NCBI GenBank assembly: GCA_047946875.1
Contig: CP181398.1
Location: 649,041 to 713,040, forward strand
Length of the DNA: 64,000 bases
Origin: Candidatus Kerfeldbacteria bacterium
GTDB lineage: Bacteria; Patescibacteriota; Patescibacteriia; UBA10025; JAHIVO01
Direction of reading: 5' to 3'
Made by a program: the position numbers and the translations under genes. Under the pieces are notes generated by a model that worked only from the letters and a program-made list of their open reading frames with translations, did no database searches and was not told the DNA's origin. Shown here one piece after another: positions 3,680 to 39,532 of this stretch; the first letter of the stretch is position 1, and the number at the start of each line of letters is the position of its first letter.

Positions 3680-4771
3680 TCATTTATCATACCTCCCTAT
3701 CTCCTCCTTTATTGTCCTAGCAACTACTTCCGGATCCTGCTTTTCATCGAAAAATATATTATGATAATGCGTATTATCTATCCCCAGCACCCTCAACACT
3801 TCCCATACTTTATTCTGTTGATCTTTGAATGCCTCAGGCAATACTACCAAATGAGTAATATCTAGATTCTCTTTCTTAATATAAGATGACGCATCAAGTG
3901 CCTCACATAACCACCGTCCATTAGTCGTACGCAGAGGTATCTCACCATAGGCAGGGTTCTCAGCATCGGGGTTAGTAAAATATATAGCCTCCCCTTTCCG
4001 CCTGATATTCCCATTAGCCTCCAACTGTTTAACTAGTTCCTCTGCCTCAATTATCTTCTCACTTTCTGAGATCAATAAATATTCCTTACCCTCGGTGGCA
4101 TCTTCTGACATTACCCCTTTTTCTTTTAACAAACCTTCTACACTTCTTTTAAAATTTTCTTTTACCCCATCTGACAGTTGCAACTGCGGAGCATCAAGTG
4201 GATCTCCTTTTTCAGTAGTTATTGCATGACCCTGTTCATCTGTCTGTATTTTTTTTGGCTTACCTAACAGATCCGTAGCATCAGGCATATCCGTATTATA
4301 TTCATCATAAAGAGATATCAACCTAGCCTTGGGGAATGATTCCGTTAATGTCTTCGCCACCTCTATCCCCACCTTATCCGTATCAGTCAGCTTATCCGAC
4401 CATATCTTACCACTAGATAGATCATAATCCGCCAAGTAAGGGCTAAATGACTCAAACTCCACCTTACGACCACTTCGATAATCTTCCAGGATTTCATTCA
4501 TTTGGCATAAGGAAAAATCCACGCCTTCACGCATGGCTTCTTTTGATGCTTCCTCTATTTCTTCATCCAATTTATATTTCAATTGCTTATCTCCAGCAGC
4601 TATACTAAAAGCACTTTTGAATTTATCTCTAATACCATTCAATATCTTTCTGATTTGCGAAGGACTTTTCTCCTCTTCTGTTTCAACTTCTGGAGAATCA
4701 TAAACCACCTCGGTCCTTTCAACCTCGTCGTTCCGCTCCACCTCTGGATTGTGCTTTAATGTTTCTGACAT
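3680..4771 (-). CDS. acidic hypothetical protein; probable third gene of the ATPase/DUF4276 operon
   Basis: 363 aa, Glu/Asp-rich N-terminus, no recognisable domain; starts 27 nt downstream of the DUF4276 stop on the same strand. Confidence 0.5.
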   Translation of the reverse strand: MSETLKHNPEVERNDEVERTEVVYDSPEVETEEEKSPSQIRKILNGIRDKFKSAFSIAAGDKQLKYKLDEEIEEASKEAMREGVDFSLCQMNEILEDYRSGRKVEFESFSPYLADYDLSSGKIWSDKLTDTDKVGIEVAKTLTESFPKARLISLYDEYNTDMPDATDLLGKPKKIQTDEQGHAITTEKGDPLDAPQLQLSDGVKENFKRSVEGLLKEKGVMSEDATEGKEYLLISESEKIIEAEELVKQLEANGNIRRKGEAIYFTNPDAENPAYGEIPLRTTNGRWLCEALDASSYIKKENLDITHLVVLPEAFKDQQNKVWEVLRVLGIDNTHYHNIFFDEKQDPEVVARTIKEEIGRYDK

Positions 4772-4797
4772 TTAATATTATAGTTATATTTCAATAT

Positions 4798-5490
4798 TTA
4801 TCTACTGACAAAAGAATCAACCTCTGTAATAAATTCATTTAAGCTATTAATCTTAGATTTAACAGATAAATACAATTCGCTATAATCTAATGCTTTGATA
4901 GTTCTTTTTATGCTATTTTCAGTCTTTGTATATCTTAATCCCACAATTTTATATATATCGTCTAAATCTATTGATGGATGACTTCTACTCTCTGGATTAT
5001 CTCTAAAAGGATCAAAATCAACACCAGTGCTTACAAGTGATTCTGTAAGAGAAGGATGAATTTTTCTATAATGACTTACCTCACCTAAAAACCATGCTTC
5101 CACTTCCATAATCGCTAGTACAATCTTTATTGGGATATATTTAGTTGGAACACGGGTAGATAGACCCATTTTTAAAGCTGGAATTTCAGCATGCGTAAAT
5201 GGATATACATCTCTTAACCCTATGATCCTATCGTAACCGCTTTCTGATAACTTTTCACAATGCTCAATAATGTCCGATTTAACACTTGAGTCTCCGCCAC
5301 AATCACGTATTAAAACATAATATTCCTTTTTAGGATTAATTGATTTTGCTTCAATTATTGTTAATAAATTTTTTTCAAATCTTTTTGTTTTAGATACTGT
5401 AATATTATTTTGACCAATAACTTCAATTAATAGCCTTTCTGAAAAAATTTGTTCTGTTTTACCCTCGACAAATATTGCTAACTTTTTCAT
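4798..5490 (-). CDS. DUF4276 family protein (Toprim-like)
   Basis: 230 aa; N-terminal KLAIFVEGKTEQIF plus IRDCGGD look like a Toprim Glu and DxD motif; 4-nt overlap with the upstream ATPase gene. Confidence 0.65.
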   Translation of the reverse strand: MKKLAIFVEGKTEQIFSERLLIEVIGQNNITVSKTKRFEKNLLTIIEAKSINPKKEYYVLIRDCGGDSSVKSDIIEHCEKLSESGYDRIIGLRDVYPFTHAEIPALKMGLSTRVPTKYIPIKIVLAIMEVEAWFLGEVSHYRKIHPSLTESLVSTGVDFDPFRDNPESRSHPSIDLDDIYKIVGLRYTKTENSIKRTIKALDYSELYLSVKSKINSLNEFITEVDSFVSR

Positions 5491-6629
5491 TTAATATTTT
5501 CATCTCTTAAATAAAAATTATTTGTAAAGAAATCAAAATTATTAAGTCCAGTATATTTAAATTCATCAAATAGCTTCTTAGAATTTTCATAATTAAGGAT
5601 ACTACATTTTCCTCCTACTCTATTAATAATAAGCCATAACTCAATTGGGATATCATTCATGACAAAGCGATCATTCGTAGTCATTATTAATTGAGCGGGT
5701 GAATCATCAATTTTTTTCATTAACAATTTAATAAGTGCTTGAGATCTCTCAAAATCTAATCCTTCACCAATATCATCAATGAGTATACAGGTAGGTGTTG
5801 ACTCTAAATGTGAGTAATTCAATTGAATAACCAATGACAAAGCTCTAAACATACCTTGAGAGATATCTTGTTGGTTTGTTATTCCTTCAAGATCTTTTTC
5901 CTTAACTGATAAACCCTTTGCCTCTATCTTCATCCCAAAATCAGATATAATTGGTATAGTTTCTAAAAAAATATTTTCTAATTGATAATTAATTTTCTTC
6001 ATATCCTTTCTGATTACATTTACAAATTTCTGACCATATTTTTTTTGACCTGCATCAAAAATATCAATTAGTCTGTTTATATTTTTTAAATTAATTTTTT
6101 CAATATTTTTATTTTGATTAATTCCTGAAACCTGATCTTTCCCCATTTGACTTCCAAATGGATAATAAAGAGTTTGCTTTCCCCATTTATATAGGTCATT
6201 AAAAAATGGGTGCTGAATTAAATCTTTCCTTACTACACAGGCTAATTCATTATTCGATACTTGAAAATCAATACTTTTTTTAAGTTGTACTGCAAATATT
6301 TTTCCTTTACCATTACCCTTTCTTTCTAGAAATTTCTTTTTATCTACTATGAATTCTTCTTTTAGTACTTTAGAATTTTTATATTTCAAAATATATTTAA
6401 CAATTTGTTTTCCATTCTCAAATTCAATTTCATAATTTCCTGAATTATATATTAATTTTTGATCACCAGAAACTAATGCAGCGAATGCATTTATAATATT
6501 TAATATTCTTGTTTTACCTGACGCATTTTTTCCAACAAGTAAATTTTTCTTACCAACGTTAAACTTTTTAACATGCCATGCTTTGGGCGTATTTTCAAAT
6601 TGACTATACTTGATTGATTTTAATATCAT
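5487..6629 (-). CDS. AAA_21/AAA_15-type ABC-like ATPase (OLD/PARIS AriA-like)
   Basis: 380 aa; Walker A GKNASGKT; C-terminal ILIDDIGEGLD Walker B/D-loop and TTND H-loop. Confidence 0.7.
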   Translation of the reverse strand: MILKSIKYSQFENTPKAWHVKKFNVGKKNLLVGKNASGKTRILNIINAFAALVSGDQKLIYNSGNYEIEFENGKQIVKYILKYKNSKVLKEEFIVDKKKFLERKGNGKGKIFAVQLKKSIDFQVSNNELACVVRKDLIQHPFFNDLYKWGKQTLYYPFGSQMGKDQVSGINQNKNIEKINLKNINRLIDIFDAGQKKYGQKFVNVIRKDMKKINYQLENIFLETIPIISDFGMKIEAKGLSVKEKDLEGITNQQDISQGMFRALSLVIQLNYSHLESTPTCILIDDIGEGLDFERSQALIKLLMKKIDDSPAQLIMTTNDRFVMNDIPIELWLIINRVGGKCSILNYENSKKLFDEFKYTGLNNFDFFTNNFYLRDENIK

Positions 6630-6674
6630 ATATTTATTTATTTACTAATCTAAATCTAATCCATTTTTAACTTT

Positions 6675-6700
6675 AAATCAACCCTGCCATTTACCCTCAC
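6675..6700. repeat. partial copy (A1) of the ~75-bp island repeat
   Basis: AAATCAACCCTGCCATTTACCCTCAC matches 25 of 26 nt with the start of repeats A2 and A3; lies about 45 nt upstream of the ATPase start. Confidence 0.7.
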
Positions 6701-6722
6701 AAATATCCCAGAATATCTTATT

Positions 6723-7829
6723 TTATTTTCCTGACTTAGTTCGATTATCCTGTTTACACAACATTTGACAATTTTTTGCTGTTGTTTTACCTCCTTCATG
6801 CCATGGATCAATGTGATCAGCTTCCATTTCAGAAATATCCCACTTCTGTTTCTTTTTGTTCTGCTTTTTGCAATCAGGACATACACCCTTTTGCCTCTCA
6901 TACGCTTCTCGCTTCATTTTATCGGTGAACGCGCGAATAGAAAGGTGCTTCTCCTGCCCTGTGAGTACATAAGGATAGATACCATATTTTTTTGTCACAT
7001 CCTCATCCTGCATCAATTTAGCAATTTCTGTTTCAAGTTTTTTTACACTTAATTTATTATCTTTGAATTGATTATATAGTTCTCCCCAATTCACGCTAAC
7101 CATTTCTTTACGATAATTTGTAAAAGTCTTTCGCACCCATTCAATCACATCTTGAAAATATCTCCACAACTCGTCAGCGTTTTTATCGTGTTGGTGTTTG
7201 GCCATGTAATCTTCTATCTTACCTTCGTTGATCCAGAAAAGTGCAGTTTCTAAATAATCTTGTCGTATTGGTGATCCACTTACCAAATGTCCTCCGTCAT
7301 TTGCTAAAAGATATGCTGCACAGTTTGATTTACTAAATTTCAATTTAGCATCACTTAACCATGGCCCCGTATAAACCGCATTGCGTAACTCTTGGTCGGT
7401 CAATTTTTCACCTGCAATATTAATAATCTTGAACCAATCAAGTCGCTCCCGATCTGTACCTTCGCACCAGTAAATCATAAGTTCATAATTCAAAATCTGA
7501 TCTTGTTCCTCATCTGTTAAATTATGAAAATACTTTTCATCTAGTGAAAAATCACCATTTACATATTGACCGATACTAATAGTACGCTGTTGACCATCGA
7601 GCATTTCGAAACCATCCTCATTCTTCAACCAATACATCACATTAAGTGGAAATTTTTGTTTGATGGATATTATAACTTCTTTACGTTGTTTGTCATTATA
7701 GACAAATTCGCGTTGATACTTAGGGCGAATATCGAGCTTGCCACCATATGCCACAACACCTTCTTCGGCGCTGTCTTTATAATCAGCGATTACTTCACGC
7801 ACAGAGATTCGATGTAGTTCAATTTTCAT
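6723..7829 (-). CDS. DUF262 (ParB-like DGQQR nuclease) with C-terminal HNH endonuclease domain
   Basis: 368 aa; DGQQR motif at about residue 80; C-terminus ADHIDPWHEGGKTTAKNCQMLCKQDNRTKS is an HNH motif with CxxC. Confidence 0.75.
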   Translation of the reverse strand: MKIELHRISVREVIADYKDSAEEGVVAYGGKLDIRPKYQREFVYNDKQRKEVIISIKQKFPLNVMYWLKNEDGFEMLDGQQRTISIGQYVNGDFSLDEKYFHNLTDEEQDQILNYELMIYWCEGTDRERLDWFKIINIAGEKLTDQELRNAVYTGPWLSDAKLKFSKSNCAAYLLANDGGHLVSGSPIRQDYLETALFWINEGKIEDYMAKHQHDKNADELWRYFQDVIEWVRKTFTNYRKEMVSVNWGELYNQFKDNKLSVKKLETEIAKLMQDEDVTKKYGIYPYVLTGQEKHLSIRAFTDKMKREAYERQKGVCPDCKKQNKKKQKWDISEMEADHIDPWHEGGKTTAKNCQMLCKQDNRTKSGK

Positions 7830-7830
7830 A

Positions 7831-8874
7831 CTATTTTTTTACTTTCTTATTTTTTATAATAATTCGTGCATAAGTAACATTAACAATACCATTTACAATC
7901 ATATATAAATCACCATCAACAGCACCTCTTTTTTGAATTTCCTTCCTATATTTTTTATGCTCTTCTTTGTATCGTTTAACTCCAATTTCTATTCCTGAAT
8001 TAGATATACCTAAACCAATAATCTCGAATTGTTTCGGATTATATTTATCGAGAAAAGTGATTGGCACACCCATATCACCGCCATAGTCATAAGGGATATC
8101 AGTGTATTTATTTACATTAATTGCGTTATAGTTTTCATATTTAGGATATTCCTCAGATTTATATTTTTTATAAAGTGTAATATTCTCTTTATGTTTATCA
8201 ACTTCTAAGTTAGTGAACCAACATGAAGTTGATACACGAGCAATTTTATTACCACTCTCATCAATATGATGAAACTTTTCCCAATCTTCTGGTACAATAA
8301 AAAACATACCAACATTAAAATTAGTGTAGCCAGTTCGAATTCTATCCTCCTTAAATAGTTTGAAAATTTCCTTATAAGTCATTGAATTAGTATTGCCAAT
8401 AATCAAAAACTTTTTATCATATTCTCTCAGCTGTGCAACATACTCGCGAAACAAAGAAAAGGGCGGATTAGTTACGACAATATCAGCCTCTTTGAGTAGA
8501 TCTATACACTCATCGCTACGAAAATCACCAGTGCCAATCATCTCGGTTATGAATTCTTCTGGATCAGGAATACGGTTGCCATTTTTATCACCAGTATATT
8601 CCAATTTATAAGGTTGTTCTTGGGTAAATAAGCTTGCTTCTTTGTAATGTGTAGCAATCAATTTTTTCAATCCTAAATGTTCAAAATTCATGCTGAAATA
8701 CTTGACGAAATTACTTTCTTTCGGATCATCGCAGTTACAAAAAACTACTTTGCCACGAAATTGATCTTTATAATGTTTTAGCTCTTTTTCAATATCAGAG
8801 AGTTGAGTGTAAAATTCGTCTTTCTTTTCTTTGCTTGCTTTGTGCAAATTTTTATTTGAAGATTTTTTTTTCAT
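7831..8874 (-). CDS. EcoRI-family N6-adenine DNA methyltransferase
   Basis: 347 aa; N-terminal KNLHKASKEKKDEFYTQLSDIEKEL...VVFCNCDDP and DIVVTNPPFSLFREY closely parallel M.EcoRI as I recall it. Confidence 0.75.
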   Translation of the reverse strand: MKKKSSNKNLHKASKEKKDEFYTQLSDIEKELKHYKDQFRGKVVFCNCDDPKESNFVKYFSMNFEHLGLKKLIATHYKEASLFTQEQPYKLEYTGDKNGNRIPDPEEFITEMIGTGDFRSDECIDLLKEADIVVTNPPFSLFREYVAQLREYDKKFLIIGNTNSMTYKEIFKLFKEDRIRTGYTNFNVGMFFIVPEDWEKFHHIDESGNKIARVSTSCWFTNLEVDKHKENITLYKKYKSEEYPKYENYNAINVNKYTDIPYDYGGDMGVPITFLDKYNPKQFEIIGLGISNSGIEIGVKRYKEEHKKYRKEIQKRGAVDGDLYMIVNGIVNVTYARIIIKNKKVKK

Positions 8875-8900
8875 AAATTAATATTCCAACTTTTTTATTT

Positions 8901-8980
8901 AAAATCAACCCTGCCATTTATCCTCACCCCCCACACACCAATTTCACCTATAAACTATGGGGTAACCTTGTTTTTAATCC
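8901..8980. repeat. island repeat copy A2 (~80 bp)
   Basis: Near-identical to A3 (9186-9260) over about 70 bp; sits about 20 nt upstream of the methyltransferase start. Confidence 0.8.
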
Positions 8981-9064
8981 ATAATACACTTTTGAAAATA
9001 ACTTTAAGTTTTTCTCTCTTTTTCGAGCATCTTTTTCGGAAGAATAAGCTTCATAATAATATAT

Positions 9065-9169
9065 TTATGGTGAAAATAAAATTACAGCCATAACCACTAC
9101 AAAAATAATTACAAATAATACTATTCTTTTACCTGTACCACCAATCCAAAATTTATTATATTTTTCCAT
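9065..9169 (-). CDS. 34-aa single-TM peptide (MEKYNKFWIGGTGKRIVLFVIIFVVVMAVILFSP)
   Basis: Hand-translated; a repeat copy (A3) lies immediately upstream, as for the neighbouring genes; below the ORF-track length cutoff. Confidence 0.3.
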   Translation of the reverse strand: MEKYNKFWIGGTGKRIVLFVIIFVVVMAVILFSP

Positions 9170-9185
9170 ATTAGATAAATTTTAA

Positions 9186-9260
9186 TTACCCCTGCCATTT
9201 ATCCTCACCCCCACATACCAATTTCACCTATAAACTATAAGGTAACCTTGTTTTTAAACA
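9186..9260. repeat. island repeat copy A3 (~75 bp)
   Basis: CCCCTGCCATTTATCCTCACCCCCACA(C/T)ACCAATTTCACCTATAAACTAT..GGTAACCTTGTTTTTAA shared with A2; overlaps the 3' end of the RhuM ORF. Confidence 0.8.
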
Positions 9261-9680
9261 CCAATTCTCTAAACACCTTTTTAAATGAAAACTTTTATTA
9301 ATAATGTAGCCATCAATCATATGCTGTTTTAATACCTTTGTCGCCCAAATACGAAATTGCGTAGCGTGTTTAGAATTAACGCGATAACCTACAGAAATAA
9401 TTGCATCAAGATTATATAAATTAACATCACGCTCTATATATCGTTTTCCTTCTTTTTGAACTATCCGGAAATTCCGGATAGTTGCTTTATCTGTTAATTC
9501 ACCTGTTCTATAAATATTTTTTAAATGCTCATTAATCGTACGTACATCTACATCGAAAACTTCAGCGATCTGCTTTTGAGATGCCCAAATAGTCTCTAGA
9601 TTAAAATCTCCACGAAATTCAATTGCTCCAGTTTTAGCCTGGTAAATAACAATATTTTTAATAGATTTATTTTTATTCAT
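9228..9680 (-). pseudogene. 3'-truncated RhuM-family (virulence/Fic-associated) gene
   Basis: 150 aa versus about 330 aa for the family; homology (IVIYQ..G.IEF...ETIWASQKQIAEVF...QFRIWATKVLKQHMIDGY) ends where repeat A3 begins; the last ~24 residues are read from sequence in and next to the repeat. Confidence 0.6.
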
Positions 9681-13206: not shown

Positions 13207-13677
13207 ATGTATATTTACATTAAGCCGGAAGCGGTCGAAGAACTGAAAAAGTACTTAGAAGGTCTTGATCAGGTCAAGATTGCCATTGAGTATGGCACGG
13301 AATCGGGTAGGAATTTGATAAGTACCCATCAAAATCCGTTCGGTATTACTTTTTCCATGGTAGATATTCCCGAAGAATTCATCGAAGAGATCACTATCCA
13401 GGACCACCAAATTGATAATGAAAATTGCACCCGGATAGAAGGGATCTACCGACATGAAGGTGCGGTATTGCAGTGCCATTTGCAAATCATATTAACTAAC
13501 AATGGTATGAATGAATGTGCTAGAGATATTATGGTAATCTCTATCACCGCTCCCAACTTGAAATCTCTTCAGACGATTTACACCCAGTTCCGATTGGGAA
13601 AAATTGAACCCGAAGAAAACTGGGAAGTTGACCAAGTAGGTCAAGAAAGTCCTTCTGATGAGGACAAAACAGAATAG
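13207..13677 (+). CDS. hypothetical protein
   Basis: 156 aa, GC-rich, acidic C-terminus. Confidence 0.5.
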   Translation: MYIYIKPEAVEELKKYLEGLDQVKIAIEYGTESGRNLISTHQNPFGITFSMVDIPEEFIEEITIQDHQIDNENCTRIEGIYRHEGAVLQCHLQIILTNNGMNECARDIMVISITAPNLKSLQTIYTQFRLGKIEPEENWEVDQVGQESPSDEDKTE

Positions 13678-13700
13678 CGAATAATCGCACAAAATAGAAT

Positions 13701-13739
13701 AACCCCGTTTGTATTTATACACTCGGGGTTAATTTTTTA
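13701..13739 (+). terminator. rho-independent terminator
   Basis: AACCCCG...CGGGGTT stem followed by T6. Confidence 0.65.
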
Positions 13740-13744
13740 TTCCA

Positions 13745-14477
13745 AAAAATTGAATAAAAAAAAGACCGTCCCCACCATGTTGCATCAGTATGCTACTAGC
13801 GGGAACGGTTAATCTAATATTCTATAATAATTTTTTGATCTAAACGAATCCAGTGGGAAACGGCATTTGAATGCCTCCGAGGTTTACCCTTTTTTGCTGG
13901 GCCGGCTGTATCTAATGTGTCCCCTACGTATACATTAACGCGGGGTGTGGAAAACAGGACTACGGATCACTAGGTGAATCCGTAAGTGGCCATATACGAC
14001 TTGCGTGTCATAGTAGCTTCCCTTTCGGGGGTCTAACGTATGGGTTTGTGGGCCATGCCGCTCTTTTTTTGGCGGCTGTGTTTCTGTCTTCTTTTTTCCG
14101 GCTGAGGCCAGATAGAGTCTGGCGGCCAGGTGCCGGATTTTTGTTTCAGTCTTCTTTTTGTCGACGAATTGTCGTCGCGCAATGGCCAGCGGCGCTAGCT
14201 TTTTCTTTTTTTTTGAACTACTGCTAGGGTCGCAGGACTACTCGGCGGCGACATACGACGGCCGGGTCGGTGAAAGTTTAATTAAAATGCGCTTTGCGCA
14301 GGTGGTTGCCGAAATTCGGCGATCCTCGGTTGAACATTTTTTTTACTCCTTTCTACCCTGGATGGTCATGTGTTAGGTTAATTCTTTCAATGAACGCGTA
14401 CTACACATATACATGCTCTACCGGTGCCAATTTAGGCGTATTACTCACGGTTATGGCATGTTATTGCGTAACCAATA
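13745..14477 (-). ncRNA. candidate large structured ncRNA (~700 nt), class unknown
   Basis: About 50% GC in a ~30% GC genome; no ORF longer than 74 aa; many GC stems; minus-strand promoter TTGACA-N17-TAGTAT at 14478-14506; minus-strand terminator (9-bp stem plus T10) at 13753-13809. Confidence 0.3.
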
Positions 14478-14527
14478 ATACTAGCGCATATTGCATAACT
14501 TGTCAAGGGGTAATATAAAGATATAAA

Positions 14528-14553
14528 AAAAGCATCTTTTATTCAAAGATGCT
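14528..14553. terminator. bidirectional hairpin terminator
   Basis: AGCATCTTT-TATTC-AAAGATGCT flanked by A-runs and T-runs. Confidence 0.5.
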
Positions 14554-14903
14554 TATCGTTTTAACAGTCGCTCTAGCTCAACAGACAAAGAATCATCGTA
14601 CTTGCTCACTTTTTCACAAGTAAAATTTTGTCCATTAATCCAACACTTCCAAACTATATTGTTTTCCCAAAATTTACGGTTCTGCTTCCAAATTAAGAAA
14701 AAAGATTTGGCTGTCGGACCCGATTTACAAAGAATACTAATCTTGCCTTTAGCAGTATTACCTGAGCTTTGAATAACTCTTCCATAGAAAGGCTCTCTAT
14801 GTCCATCTATGTAAATCTCTACTACATCCCACATTTTTGGGATATAATCCGGTCCATTTTCATGGAAAGTACGCATAATATCCTCCAATGTATAAAAGAT
14901 CAT
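14553..14903 (-). CDS. hypothetical protein
   Basis: 116-aa ORF. Confidence 0.45.
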   Translation of the reverse strand: MIFYTLEDIMRTFHENGPDYIPKMWDVVEIYIDGHREPFYGRVIQSSGNTAKGKISILCKSGPTAKSFFLIWKQNRKFWENNIVWKCWINGQNFTCEKVSKYDDSLSVELERLLKR

Positions 14904-14999
14904 TTTCGATTATAGCTTACATTCTTAAGTAAATATCGTCAATTACAGTTTTTGTAACAAAAAAGACCCTTTAATCTAGAGGGTCTTCAATTCATTAAT

Positions 15000-15329
15000 T
15001 TACATTTCTCCGCCTTCACCTTCAATAGCAGAGCGGAGTGACTCTACCATATCATCGACTCTAGACCTCTTGTCACCAGACATCGCTATATAGTTCTCCT
15101 GATCCATTGCCAAACTCAACCACTCACTTTCATCACTATCTTCTTTAATACCAATCTGCTGGTAAATAGCAATTAATTCCGTTGGATTTTTACCATTTAA
15201 ATTTTCCTTTAGAAATTGAGCCGTGGCAGTAGCTTTTTCCCACATGGCCCTGCCCTCAGGTGATTTCCCAGCTTCACTCATATATTTAAATATTAGTTTA
15301 TTATAATTTAATTTTAAACCATATATCAC
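15000..15329 (-). CDS. hypothetical protein
   Basis: 109-aa ORF; the true start may be an internal Met. Confidence 0.45.
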   Translation of the reverse strand: MIYGLKLNYNKLIFKYMSEAGKSPEGRAMWEKATATAQFLKENLNGKNPTELIAIYQQIGIKEDSDESEWLSLAMDQENYIAMSGDKRSRVDDMVESLRSAIEGEGGEM

Positions 15330-15445: not shown

Positions 15446-15955
15446 ATGAAGTTACATCACACCATTTTGACCATAATTTTGGTCATCAGTTTAGCAACCT
15501 TCTTTGGTTGCAATGGGGAATCATCAAACATGTCAACTGAAGCTCAGTTGGAAGAAACTATTAGAAACCTTCCTACCGGGTATAACGACATGATGGTTCT
15601 TTATTCGGAAATTCTCAACCTAGAAGATGGTTTTATAAAACTATTGGACAGTTACGATGAATTCCGAGTAACTATGGACTCCATTCGTGCATGTACACCG
15701 GAAGAAGAGCTACTACCGGATTCGATCTATGTGCAGAATGGCAGGTTCAACGACGACATTTTCAGTGTGGAGAACCTTTGGAATAAGAAGGTATACCAGT
15801 ACAACGAAATGGGTGGAGTAATGCATCCTGACAGTTTGATGGCAGGCAATACCGCCATGAACATCGAACTACCGGCTGGTATCAACATCCAAGCCGAAGA
15901 GTCAAAGACTGATGAAGAAAAAGTTCAAAAAATCTTAGAATCATTGAATCAGTAA
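15446..15955 (+). CDS. putative lipoprotein
   Basis: 169 aa; signal peptide with lipobox FFGC. Confidence 0.55.
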   Translation: MKLHHTILTIILVISLATFFGCNGESSNMSTEAQLEETIRNLPTGYNDMMVLYSEILNLEDGFIKLLDSYDEFRVTMDSIRACTPEEELLPDSIYVQNGRFNDDIFSVENLWNKKVYQYNEMGGVMHPDSLMAGNTAMNIELPAGINIQAEESKTDEEKVQKILESLNQ

Positions 15956-15974
15956 CAAGAAGGGAGTTCAAAAA

Positions 15975-16451
15975 ATGAGACATGAAAAGTATTTCATCGA
16001 AAGTACTGGCGAAGTTAAACTCGCTAAAATCATTTTCCATGTATTCGGCCTTATTTGCCTGATCGTCTTGCTTAGTTTCGTGGGCAAAGTGGTCTTCTTT
16101 CCAGCGCAAGTAGCGCAGGAAATCGCTGAAGAGACTTTCGACGGTAGTCGGATGATCTATGTCTACGAAGACTTCTTCAACAAGTACGAAGCGGCCAAAG
16201 CAACAGCCATCAAGGTGAAAAATCACCAGAGGGCTCTGGATGACTTCAAATTCGGCCATCCGGACCCGGATAATTGGGATTATAATGATCGTCAAGAGTA
16301 TGATCGTTTATCCTCAATGATTCCAGCCGTGATGAATTTATTGGCCGACCAAGTCGGACAGTATAACGCCGACGCCGCGAAGATCAACCGCGCTTTTCTG
16401 AAAGGCGATAAATTGCCTGACAGTCTGGTCATTGAAGAACTCACGCAATAA
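15975..16451 (+). CDS. membrane-anchored hypothetical protein
   Basis: 158 aa with an N-terminal TM helix. Confidence 0.5.
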   Translation: MRHEKYFIESTGEVKLAKIIFHVFGLICLIVLLSFVGKVVFFPAQVAQEIAEETFDGSRMIYVYEDFFNKYEAAKATAIKVKNHQRALDDFKFGHPDPDNWDYNDRQEYDRLSSMIPAVMNLLADQVGQYNADAAKINRAFLKGDKLPDSLVIEELTQ

Positions 16452-16469
16452 CCCAAGGAAGGAAGAAAG

Positions 16470-17048
16470 ATGAAAACGAGAAAAATTCTCATTCTAACTT
16501 GTATGGCTTTGTTCGTCCTGATGGCGAATGGAGTCGTCCTGGCGGATAACGATTTTGAAGCGTCCTCCAAAGCTGTCAGTAGAATTCAGGCTCAGGACCA
16601 ATTGCAAACCGCTCAGAATTTCGAACGGTTATACAATGCGGTCCCGCCACCCGAAATGCAGGACTCCCAGGAACGACGCCAGCTGGTCAAACGGCTGAAT
16701 CGTTTCAATGTTTCTTCAAAGATCAGTTATATTTATCTGATCGACCGGGGAATCATCATGGCCTTCTTTACGGTCAAGGGAAAAGTCAGCTCAGTTAACT
16801 CCATGCTGACCTGCACAAAACAATTGGTTTACGATGGTTACGGTACCAGCTATGGCCGAGGTGGCGTTCACGCGGTTGCTAGTCCTGATCTCGACGGTAG
16901 CTATGGTACCAATGGTAATGGAGTATTCTTCTTCACCGATCTCGATACTTATATCGAATGGAACGGCAAGTACCTACTCTGTGATCAGTACATAAAGCTC
17001 AACCAACCGCCGGTCCTCGTTCTCGAAACTGAGGAAGGAGGCAAATAA
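16470..17048 (+). CDS. secreted hypothetical protein, tandem paralog A
   Basis: 192 aa, signal peptide; about 70% identical to the next gene. Confidence 0.6.
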   Translation: MKTRKILILTCMALFVLMANGVVLADNDFEASSKAVSRIQAQDQLQTAQNFERLYNAVPPPEMQDSQERRQLVKRLNRFNVSSKISYIYLIDRGIIMAFFTVKGKVSSVNSMLTCTKQLVYDGYGTSYGRGGVHAVASPDLDGSYGTNGNGVFFFTDLDTYIEWNGKYLLCDQYIKLNQPPVLVLETEEGGK

Positions 17049-17049
17049 G

Positions 17050-17631
17050 ATGAGATTGAACAAAAATCATATCATCTTCATCGCCATCGCTATGGCTATA
17101 CTCCTTCTGACTATCGGTTGTGGAAAGAATAAAGAATTTTCCAACTCATCCAAAGCCGTCAGTAACATTCAGGCCAAGGACCAGCTGAAAACCGCTGAAA
17201 ATTTCGAACGGTTATACAAAGCGGTCCCACCTCCGGAACTTCAGGATTCCCAAGAACGGCGTCAGCTGGTTAAACGGCTGAACCGATTCAATGTAGCCAA
17301 CAAGATCAGCTTTATCTACATCATTGACTTCGGGAAAATCATTGGATTTTTCACGGTCAAAGGTAAAGTCAGTTCAGTTAACTCTATGTTAACTTGTACT
17401 GAACAGCTGGTTGATGATGGATTTGGGACGGGTACTGGTGAAAATGGACGCGATAATGTCCATATTGTTCCCAGTCCTGATCTTGACGGTAGCTATGGTA
17501 CCAATGGTAAAGGAGTATTCTTCTTTACTGATCTCGATATCTATGTGGAATGGAATGGCACTTATATGCTTTCCGACCAGTACATCAAACTGGATCAACC
17601 ACCGGTCCTTATGCTCAAAGTGAAAGCCTAG
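17050..17631 (+). CDS. lipoprotein, tandem paralog B
   Basis: 193 aa; lipobox TIGC; shares the conserved KGKVSSVNSMLTCT motif with paralog A. Confidence 0.6.
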   Translation: MRLNKNHIIFIAIAMAILLLTIGCGKNKEFSNSSKAVSNIQAKDQLKTAENFERLYKAVPPPELQDSQERRQLVKRLNRFNVANKISFIYIIDFGKIIGFFTVKGKVSSVNSMLTCTEQLVDDGFGTGTGENGRDNVHIVPSPDLDGSYGTNGKGVFFFTDLDIYVEWNGTYMLSDQYIKLDQPPVLMLKVKA

Positions 17632-38863: not shown

Positions 38864-39532
38864 ATGAAACAAGAGACTAAGAAAAAACTCTACAAATTCT
38901 TAGCAATAGGAACCTTAATTCTTAGCCTTATAGCATTTATCATTTATGCTATTTATCGTTTTTTTAAATTTGTTACCTCTGGAACTCTTGAGGGTACTTT
39001 ATGGGGAATTGGTGTTATCATCGTTCCAATTCTCTTGTTTATCCTTATTTCAAGGATACGTGGTGAGTTATACCAACAAGAACGAGCTAAAATAAACCAA
39101 CAACGAAAAGAGAGAGAAGAAAAATTAGAGAGAGAAGAACGCAAGAGAAAAGCCGAAGCAGAAGCAAGAGAAAAATCAGAGAGAGAAGAACGCAAGAGAA
39201 AAGCCGAAGCAGAAGCAAAGGAGGCAAAGAGAAGAGGTATCTGCGTTTGCTGTGAAAAACCATCCAAAAATTTAGATTCTTTGGCATGGTGTAATAATTG
39301 TATTCTTGAGGTTGAACGTATAAAAAGAAAAAGAAAAGAGAAACCGCTACGTGATGCTGAAGAAGCTGGTAAGGATGTATGTTGGGAATGCGAATCTATT
39401 AACCCTAATAGATTCAGAACAGGTGAATGCATACAATGCTCAAATAGATGTCGCTGTGGAGCACCCTTCACTAGACACAACCCTAGCTTAGGCGGAGAAT
39501 GCGTTGACTGTTTTCTTGATTATGATGACTAA
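38864..39532 (+). CDS. membrane protein with charged coiled coil and a Cys-rich (6x CxxC) C-terminal domain
   Basis: 222 aa; two TM helices, ER/K-rich repeat, CVCCEKP..CNNC..CWEC..CIQC..CRC..CVDC. Confidence 0.6.
   Translation: MKQETKKKLYKFLAIGTLILSLIAFIIYAIYRFFKFVTSGTLEGTLWGIGVIIVPILLFILISRIRGELYQQERAKINQQRKEREEKLEREERKRKAEAEAREKSEREERKRKAEAEAKEAKRRGICVCCEKPSKNLDSLAWCNNCILEVERIKRKRKEKPLRDAEEAGKDVCWECESINPNRFRTGECIQCSNRCRCGAPFTRHNPSLGGECVDCFLDYDD
39127..39228 (+). repeat. perfect 51-nt in-frame tandem repeat x2 (EREERKRKAEAEAREKS)
   Basis: Identical 51-nt units at 39127 and 39178. Confidence 0.85.

Follow-up and report, generated by a model that had tools for sequence, protein, structure and literature searches.

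A probable lineage-restricted structured RNA gene of about 0.7 kb in Candidatus Kerfeldbacteria

We analysed a 64-kb stretch of DNA from Candidatus Kerfeldbacteria, a member of the Candidate Phyla Radiation (CPR; Patescibacteria), referred to below as the window, and found that a region on its minus strand (13753-14506) is probably a real, lineage-restricted structured RNA gene representing a new orphan family, for which two sequences serve as evidence. Judged from the sequences, the region carries a putative promoter and a putative intrinsic terminator of its own, both conserved at an orthologous locus, and the 5' domain of the stretch between them is conserved above the neutral level, with no conserved reading frame of more than 21 codons in the region. 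An earlier inspection of these letters, made without database searches (the sequence-only reading), had proposed a large structured non-coding RNA (ncRNA) at this place. A non-coding, independently transcribed, structured RNA on the minus strand is indeed the best reading, but membership in a large ornate RNA class is not established, because only two members were found and relatives closer than the family level lack the element at the syntenic site.

The region stands out by its composition. When we considered open reading frames (ORFs) of at least 100 aa and the gaps of at least 200 nt between them, the window contained 14 such gaps, among which that at 13678-14552 (GC 0.437) is the second longest and the sole GC-rich one, the GC content of the other 13 being 0.235-0.349. 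In 200-nt windows the GC content reaches 0.50-0.535 over 13900-14300, against 0.34 for the window as a whole, and the region exceeds its neighbouring genes by 10-19 points. The rise to about 50% reported by the sequence-only reading is thus borne out, as is its statement that the longest ORF in any frame encodes 74 aa.

As an AddA-like helicase-nuclease gene with many relatives lies 1 kb from the RNA region, we used it to check synteny. Two assemblies, L001 and L002, match the window letter for letter in this region (100% identity), and therefore contain no comparative information. The homologue search that had been suggested along with the original observation returned one homologue, L084:2302-2955, in an ENA assembly whose helicase is the closest of these relatives, with compensatory pairing in its 3' hairpins. 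This copy lies on the helicase strand, and the L084 helicase is 94.5% identical to that of the window in a global alignment and 92% identical by BLASTP. Initial nhmmer searches matched the two copies with E=1.7e-25 in the 5' part and 9e-9 in the 3' part. The L084 copy is syntenic: the orthologue of the ~100-aa gene lies immediately upstream of it and that of the ~150-aa gene faces it in convergent orientation, so that both loci have the order Pro_CA_2, ~93-aa gene, ~100-aa gene, RNA, convergent ~150-aa gene and helicase. The promoter, the terminator, a 5' domain of about 220 nt and an array of 3' hairpins are all conserved in it.

The degree of conservation varies strongly along the element. 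At four-fold degenerate sites of the helicase, the window and L084 agree in 58% of cases (170/295), and the neighbouring small proteins are 28-46% identical, while the 5' domain is 78% identical in ungapped columns, with exact runs of 9-16 nt. In nhmmer searches of L084 with the window segments one by one, the 5' domain scored 91.6 bits (E=3e-28) and the 3' domain 21.9 and 16.2 bits; two neighbouring coding sequences scored 25.7 and 31.7 bits, and neither the 156-aa coding sequence nor any of five other intergenic regions gave a hit. By these scores the 5' domain is the best-conserved feature of the island. Since conservation is so heterogeneous along a single 0.7-kb unit, selection is favoured over a uniformly recent transfer.

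The putative promoter (14478-14510, minus strand) consists of CCCC, a -35 element TTGACA (14506-14501), a 17-nt spacer and a -10 element TAGTAT (14483-14478), and would place the transcription start near 14471. The TTGACA-N17-TAGTAT pattern named in the sequence-only reading is therefore present, and matches at 10 of 12 positions. Promoter-like sites occur in this AT-rich window at chance frequency (nine found, 7.5 expected), and this one gains its credibility from being conserved in L084, where the 14-nt stretch CCCCTTGACAAGTT is identical and the -10 element TATTAT follows at the same 17-nt spacing, the spacer sequence itself being different. Upstream of it, at 14530-14554 on the same strand, a 10-bp hairpin followed by U7 (-11.7 kcal/mol, z -4.5) forms an intrinsic terminator of the preceding gene, and an equivalent hairpin with U7 is found in the same position in L084 (2250-2281). 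As this terminator lies in between, the ~100-aa gene is set apart from the promoter of the RNA.

At the other end, the terminator of the RNA (13756-13809, minus strand) is composed of a long stem (13809-13765) and a U8 tract (13763-13756), with a folding energy of -27.5 kcal/mol (z -6.2). Its L084 counterpart folds at -29.8 kcal/mol (z -5.8), and forms a hairpin at the homologous place when folded alone. The conserved parts are the basal 10 bp (CCGUUCCCGC / GYGGGGACGG) and the U8 tract; the apical part has diverged, and one G-U pair has become G-C. The terminator previously described as a 9-bp stem plus T10 is thus real, but it is stronger than described, with about 13 paired positions and an apical 4-bp hairpin, and its tail reads U8 and then AUU. 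Three 3' hairpins (Hp-a, Hp-b and Hp-c, below) and the terminator contain G-U pairs on the minus-strand RNA which on the opposite strand would be C-A mismatches. These one-sided pairs, the orientation of the promoter and the terminator, and the folding z-scores together fix the strand. The whole region folds much better than its shuffles on the minus strand, with a minimum free energy (MFE) z-score of -6.8, and less markedly so on the plus strand, at -3.3 (20 shuffles each).

The 3' domain (13811-14045, minus strand) is made up of successive hairpins, with moderately conserved linkers (ACCCAUACG, GGAUUCACCU, GGGUAAAC and UGGAUUCGU) between them; the L084 version contains an extra perfect hairpin of about 65 nt. 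Hairpin Hp-a (13960-13985), UUACGGAU-U-CAC / GUG-AUCCGUAG, differs between the species by two to three compensatory pairs (A-U to G-C, C-G to U-A, U-A to A-U) and one G-C to G-U change; its bulged U is paired in L084, and separate folds place the hairpin homologously in both species. Hairpin Hp-b (13921-13945), CCCCGCGU / ACGU-A-GGGG, has a conserved bulged A, and when folded alone gives an identical bracket pattern of 8 bp plus the A bulge in both species; there are three compensatory pairs (C-G to G-C, G-C to U-A, U-A to C-G), and one of its pairs is G-U in both. In Hp-c (13877-13905), CCG-GCCC ... GGGU ... CGG, the inner 4 bp, one of them G-U, do not vary, and the outer helix is kept in part. 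Hp-d (13862-13875), GGCAU-UCAA-AUGCC, corresponds to GGUAUC-AUGC-GAUACC in L084, with one compensatory pair (C-G to U-A) and one additional pair. In a hairpin-by-hairpin alignment of three of the 3' hairpins, 13 of the 21 comparable pairs are unchanged, one is changed on one side, seven are compensatory and none is broken.

As a test less dependent on manual alignment, we derived a covariance model with four local hairpins solely from the window sequence. Its sole non-self hit in the 186 kb searched was L084:2643-2787 (11.9 bits, E=0.35), and a sequence-only model of the same stretch found nothing. In the alignment made by the covariance model, 96.4% of the cells are paired and six pairs are altered on both sides; sliding the partners by 1-3 columns leaves 0-1 such double changes, and three of 500 shuffles reach the observed values. 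The consensus fold of this alignment is 5.9 standard deviations better than column shuffles.

The 5' domain (14250-14471, minus strand), about 220 nt long, is under sequence constraint. It contains the blocks AACCGUGAGUAA, GCCUAAAUUGGCACCG, CAUGACCAU, CGAGGAUCGCCGA, ACCUGCGCAA and CACCGACC, which are invariant between the window and L084, and its consensus fold, computed from a purely sequence-based alignment, is 2.7 standard deviations better than column shuffles. The sequence-only reading had missed that this domain also holds a short ORF of 19-21 codons with a Shine-Dalgarno (SD)-like sequence and an AUG, kept in both copies. In the window, AAAGGAG (14346-14352, as read from the sequence) precedes by 8 nt an ORF of 19 codons plus stop (14278-14337) that would encode MFNRGSPNFGNHLRKAHFN; in L084, GGAAGGAG stands 5 nt ahead of the AUG of an ORF for MFNRGSPRFGTNLRNAPINLI. 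The ORF overlaps two hairpins with invariant stems, GCCGA-AUU-UCGGC (14308-14320) and GCGC-AAA-GCGC (14289-14299). By our own comparison of the frames, the two ORFs differ at nine nucleotides, one synonymous and eight non-synonymous, and these differences fall mainly in hairpin loops and linkers. The synonymous one also converts a G-C pair of a predicted long-range helix to G-U, and beyond the stop codon the conserved nucleotides fall in differing frames in the two species. Constraint at the RNA level would thus seem to explain these substitutions better than constraint on a peptide.

The middle segment (14046-14249, minus strand) is a species-specific expansion of four to five perfect GC-rich hairpins with A-rich linkers between them, and is not part of the conserved core, since it is missing from the only homologue. 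Between its flanking anchors the window counts 227 nt, against 55 nt in L084, where a single hairpin of about 43 nt occupies the position, and nhmmer finds no match between the two. Perfect GC stems had been pointed out in the region, and they are present: GCCGC..GCGGC at 14057-14076, GCCAGA-TAGAG-TCTGGC at about 14108-14124, CGACGA-ATTG-TCGTCG at about 14162-14177 and CCC-TTTC-GGG at about 14021-14032 can all be found as described, but the stem at 13862-13875, GGCAT-TTGA-ATGCC, has 5 bp and lacks the outer C/G quoted for it. However, most of these stems lie in the ~200-nt middle and not in the conserved core, and so does an 18-nt direct repeat that is missing in L084, whose two copies, AAAAAGAAGACUGAAACA (14142-14159) and AAAAAGAAGACAGAAACA (14079-14096) on the RNA strand, are identical at 17 of 18 positions. 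It is largely this private expansion that makes the z-score of the window copy so extreme.

The repeat motif GAAGACNGAAAC (14079-14096 and 14142-14159, RNA strand) resembles the 3' end of many CRISPR repeats. When two copies of it were used as a key to search genome contigs, the scan returned CRISPR arrays (Deinococcus, Methanosuratincola and others) and chance matches, none of them related to the RNA by nhmmer. As the window contains no array, a CRISPR-associated RNA was rejected.

No known RNA class was recovered. The Rfam check proposed along with the original observation produced no match at gathering score to Rfam 15, either in the 64-kb window or in seven related loci. The reported absence of RNase P, transfer-messenger RNA (tmRNA) and signal recognition particle (SRP) RNA signatures was confirmed, as neither Rfam 15 nor ARAGORN, which looks for tRNA and tmRNA, finds any. 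In the E-value mode of Rfam, the matches are all sub-threshold and to unrelated small RNA and other models; the best ones are driven by the terminator and differ between the two copies (suhB with 20 bits in the window, SraG with 33 bits in L084). The suggested likeness to OLE, ROOL and GOLLD did not hold up, since there is no Rfam similarity and no tRNA or phage context; ARAGORN finds no tRNA gene in the window. Three further candidates were discarded: the GGA motifs expected of a CsrA-type sponge are, judged by eye, near chance frequency and located in stems; mimicry of the 16S 3' end by GGAUUCACCU has no small-subunit rRNA signal in Rfam; and tRNA-like ends are supported by neither Rfam nor ARAGORN.

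The reading we favour, which we hold at about an even chance of being right, is a stand-alone RNA gene whose 5' module is constrained in sequence and whose 3' hairpin array is constrained in structure, with a centre free to expand between them, acting most likely in regulation or scaffolding in trans. A minus-strand transcript of about 0.72 kb would run from about 14471 to 13756, from a sigma-70-type promoter to the intrinsic terminator. Its ~220-nt 5' domain, with long invariant single-stranded and hairpin segments, would most likely confer specificity, by base pairing or by protein recognition. The central segment would be freely expandable, having grown to four to five perfect GC hairpins in the window species. 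The 3' array, with at least four hairpins that keep pairing over sequence, would most likely provide stability or a protein-binding scaffold. The RNA may act in trans, as a regulator or a scaffold, within a narrow lineage. A bolder version, which we regard as speculative and rather improbable, is a CPR-specific large riboregulator or ribonucleoprotein (RNP) RNA of about 0.6-0.7 kb, with an invariant 5' specificity domain (possibly encoding a peptide of about 20 residues, as in RNAIII), a centre able to expand and a 3' hairpin scaffold that covaries, partnered with the two extremely rare small proteins encoded immediately upstream on the same strand. In the related locus L085, both small upstream proteins are kept with no RNA beside them, and therefore such a partnership is not obligatory, at least in cis.

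Several observations weigh against a conserved functional RNA. The structure conservation index (SCI) is modest, 0.47 in the 5' domain and 0.63 in the 3' hairpin region, and with two sequences only, in hairpin alignments that were guided by structure, no valid covariation statistic such as that of R-scape can be obtained. The L084 copy is barely more stable than its shuffles (z -2.4 sense, -2.1 antisense), and the two copies differ by large lineage-specific indels of about 170 nt in the window and about 65 nt in L084. The short ORF with its good SD sequence and AUG lies within the conserved 5' domain. No target or partner was identified, shared 9-mer complementarity having been sought in about 5% of the genome. 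The region sits in a mosaic, horizontally shuffled island, and nine further helicase relatives (62-73% identity; L085-L089 and L091-L097) do not have the element in the syntenic position. These loci were searched with nhmmer --max and a two-sequence profile, and L085, L086, L088, L089, L091 and L092 also with the structure model. As the element is missing at the syntenic site of these distant relatives, it is young or dispensable. The weight of the finding is accordingly limited by the two-species distribution, by the absence from the next relatives and by the lack of a functional clue.

Searches for further copies elsewhere found none. Collections of phages, plasmids and viral contigs contain no match to the region, and a metagenome scan with a conserved 22-mer returned nothing; a scan with the alignment of the ~100-aa protein returned L090 alone, which is of the same species as L085. 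L085 has the same gene order from Pro_CA_2 to the helicase as the window and L084, without the RNA, and in both L085 and L090 a methyltransferase gene occupies its position. Past this gene, at L090:1930-2060 (corresponding to the L085 gap 8812-9155), there is a stretch of about 130 nt with three perfect GC hairpins, CCGCCTTTGGCGG, CCCGCCGCAGGCGGG and CCTGACTTTCAGTCAGG; it is unrelated in sequence to the window RNA, and may represent a further small RNA or else a repeat element. In L089, the interval from Pro_CA_2 to the helicase includes a gene-free gap of 872 nt (4540-5411) with a GC content of 0.36, below the mean of the locus, which adjoins a gene for a protein with an RRM_1 RNA-binding domain.

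Among the rival explanations, the one that we take most seriously, although we consider it unlikely, is a dual-function RNA or micropeptide mRNA, in which the SD sequence and the AUG would drive synthesis of a peptide of 19-21 residues (MFNRGSP.FG..LR.A..N), the rest being a structured 3' untranslated region (UTR) or a riboregulatory module, as in Staphylococcus aureus RNAIII/hld. It gains from the SD-like sequences 8 nt (window) and 5 nt (L084) ahead of a conserved AUG, from the location of the ORF in the best-conserved part of the transcript, and from the identity of the first seven codons save one synonymous change and of 13 of the 19 residues. However, nearly all differences within the ORF (eight of nine) are non-synonymous, they spare the stems, and the sole synonymous one also turns a G-C pair of the predicted long-range helix into G-U; the length and C-terminus of the ORF vary; invariance is equally high outside it, for example in GCCUAAAUUGGCACCG and AACCGUGAGUAA; base pairing between the AUG and the conserved CAUGACCAU is predicted; and the peptide is neither hydrophobic nor toxin-like, with no modification genes nearby. 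Somewhat less probable still is non-functional hairpin-rich DNA of a hypervariable island, such as a mobile-element remnant or shuffled cargo, whose similarity to L084 would reflect a recent horizontal exchange. The island is a mosaic, with neighbours 28-46% identical beside a helicase 94% identical and a 93-aa protein closer to that of L085; the element is missing in all other relatives; its family is tiny; and its middle third is wholly unconserved. But a recent transfer predicts uniform similarity, and what is seen is 92 bits in the 5' domain, no match in the middle and a 3' domain that has diverged and yet remains paired. Moreover, the promoter and the terminator are both kept with correct spacing, every substitution in the compared stems preserves pairing, and the element has neither terminal inverted repeats nor another copy in the 64-kb window nor any similarity to phages or plasmids.

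The remaining alternatives carry far less weight. A DNA-level element acting in single-stranded or cruciform form, such as a single-strand replication origin or a recombination site of an integrated element, would be in keeping with dense inverted repeats kept by compensatory change and with a location in a variable island, but we consider it very improbable, given that several conserved stem positions are G-U wobbles on one strand only, that a conserved promoter and a U8-tailed terminator bracket the region in the right orientation, and that the neighbours include no replication, relaxase, integrase or transposase gene. We give hardly any credence to the possibility that the RNA belongs to a known class and has diverged strongly from it (RNase P RNA, tmRNA, SRP or 6S RNA, a group I or II intron, OLE, GOLLD, ROOL, raiA or HEARO). 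The size and the GC contrast do resemble those of large ornate RNAs, and housekeeping RNAs of CPR bacteria can be divergent; against this, the window and the seven related loci give no family match at gathering score, the best E-value-mode matches are far below threshold, terminator-driven and different between the copies, ARAGORN detects no tmRNA, and the NCBI locus tags run consecutively across the region. A decayed protein-coding gene, for which the location in an island of fast-evolving orphan genes might speak, is about as improbable. The longest ORF of 74 aa, on the plus strand, has a counterpart of 33 aa in L084, and no ORF of more than 21 codons is shared by the two; Pfam searches with ORF translations of at least 49 aa from both copies gave no match at E<=1 except one at chance level (E=0.02, 15 bits, cutoff 30); the conserved nucleotides shift frame between the species; and the GC content lies well above that of the neighbouring genes.

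The genes around the RNA are rare and evolve rapidly. The two flanking genes have the consecutive NCBI locus tags ACNFW9_03390 and ACNFW9_03395, which means that NCBI annotates nothing between them. The flanking 156-aa protein is recorded for the source organism alone, on four contigs including SWBW01001861.1 and a 1.31-Mb contig, and in a word-indexed search of 5.8 billion proteins both immediate neighbours (the 156-aa and 107-aa proteins) gave only self-matches. An exhaustive HMMER search of 1.84 billion representatives with the ~100-aa family (107 aa in the window) returned seven hits, with only six weak relatives of the 107-aa protein. The single-sequence AlphaFold model of the 107-aa protein is all-beta with a pLDDT of 59, too low for a fold search. 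The ~93-aa, ~100-aa and convergent ~150-aa proteins have no match in NCBIfam, PHROG or PADLOC; the sole Pfam match of these three small neighbours is a sub-threshold one of the 156-aa protein to Fe-S_biosyn (E 0.0039, 17.8 bits, cutoff 26.3). The 93-aa protein of the window is 71% identical to that of L085 and 45% to that of L084, and the ranking is reversed for the helicase, with 94% to L084 and 73% to L085. These opposite rankings indicate recombination or horizontal exchange within the island (13207-15281).

Defence-type genes are found on either side of the helicase. In the window, GmrSD_N/HNH, an EcoRI-type methylase and RhuM lie at 5487-9680 beside the AddA-like helicase-nuclease, and in the relatives L095 and L096 a type I restriction-modification (R-M) system, SduA_C (Shedu) and Mrr lie on the helicase flank that holds the RNA island in the window. 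It therefore seems that variable cargo of the defence type accumulates preferentially on both flanks of the helicase, as at hot spots. At 15446-17631 on the plus strand there are four ORFs of 169, 158, 192 and 193 aa with signal-peptide-like or lipoprotein-like N-termini and a GC content of 0.41-0.52 (genome 34%). They have no match in Pfam, PADLOC or NCBIfam and one chance-level PHROG hit (192-aa ORF, E 0.0036, a family of unknown function), which is the only PHROG match among the neighbours. As these four ORFs are missing in L084, where Pro_CA_2 is directly followed by the 91-aa gene, they have the appearance of inserted cargo. Five orthologues of the helicase-nuclease in CPR bacteria (P0005, P0024, P0027, P0048 and P0112) contain an intein (Hint / Intein_splicing domains, ~1320-1385 aa), which the window copy lacks. 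Elsewhere in the window, at 39109-39218, a purine-rich 51-nt unit (AGAGAAGAACGCAAG...) occurs in two repeats that are 98% identical, at the site of the ORFs 38864-39532 (plus strand) and 38953-39480 (minus strand).

CPR bacteria are uncultivated and host-dependent, with genomes of about 1 Mb, and an RNA gene of 0.7 kb kept under selection in such a streamlined genome should have a function worth its cost. Our literature search for CPR/Patescibacteria turned up no paper on ncRNAs, regulatory or structured, beyond the housekeeping set. The RNA gene would offer an entry to RNA-based regulation or RNP biology in these bacteria, and if it should prove to be a riboregulator or an RNP component, it would be the first CPR-specific example. 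What is new is an orphan family among the stand-alone structured RNAs of bacteria, notable for its size and its CPR host. The case also suggests that the criterion of long GC-rich intergenic regions works in CPR genomes, with the caution that the showiest hairpins are the least conserved part.

Compared with known systems, the element is similar to OLE, GOLLD, ROOL and raiA in being a stand-alone unit of several hundred nucleotides in a long GC-rich intergenic region of an AT-rich genome, and in its multi-hairpin architecture with variable-length insertions. It differs from them in having no covariance-model similarity, in being found in two species where those classes have hundreds to thousands of representatives, in that about one third of it is unconserved, and in its CPR host, as opposed to Firmicutes or other host-associated taxa. 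GOLLD and ROOL often adjoin tRNA genes, sit in prophages or both, and in contrast to them the window RNA has neither a tRNA nor a prophage context. With RNAIII (hld), Bacillus SR1/SR1P and Escherichia coli SgrS/SgrT it shares a predicted independent transcript with its own promoter and terminator, many hairpins, an SD-preceded short ORF in the 5' half and modular 5' and 3' domains. Unlike in those RNAs, however, its ORF substitutions do not look coding-like and its loops are not C-rich anti-SD loops; nor is there homology to them in sequence or structure. The middle (14046-14249) resembles REP/BIME-like palindromic clusters in its perfect GC hairpins with A-rich linkers, its restriction to one species and its repeated 18-mer, but it occurs as a single copy in the 64-kb window and lies between two conserved domains of one promoter-to-terminator unit, not merely between convergent genes. 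The element would work most like the large orphan ncRNAs of GC-rich intergenic regions or the RNAIII-type RNAs, and is a member of none of these families.

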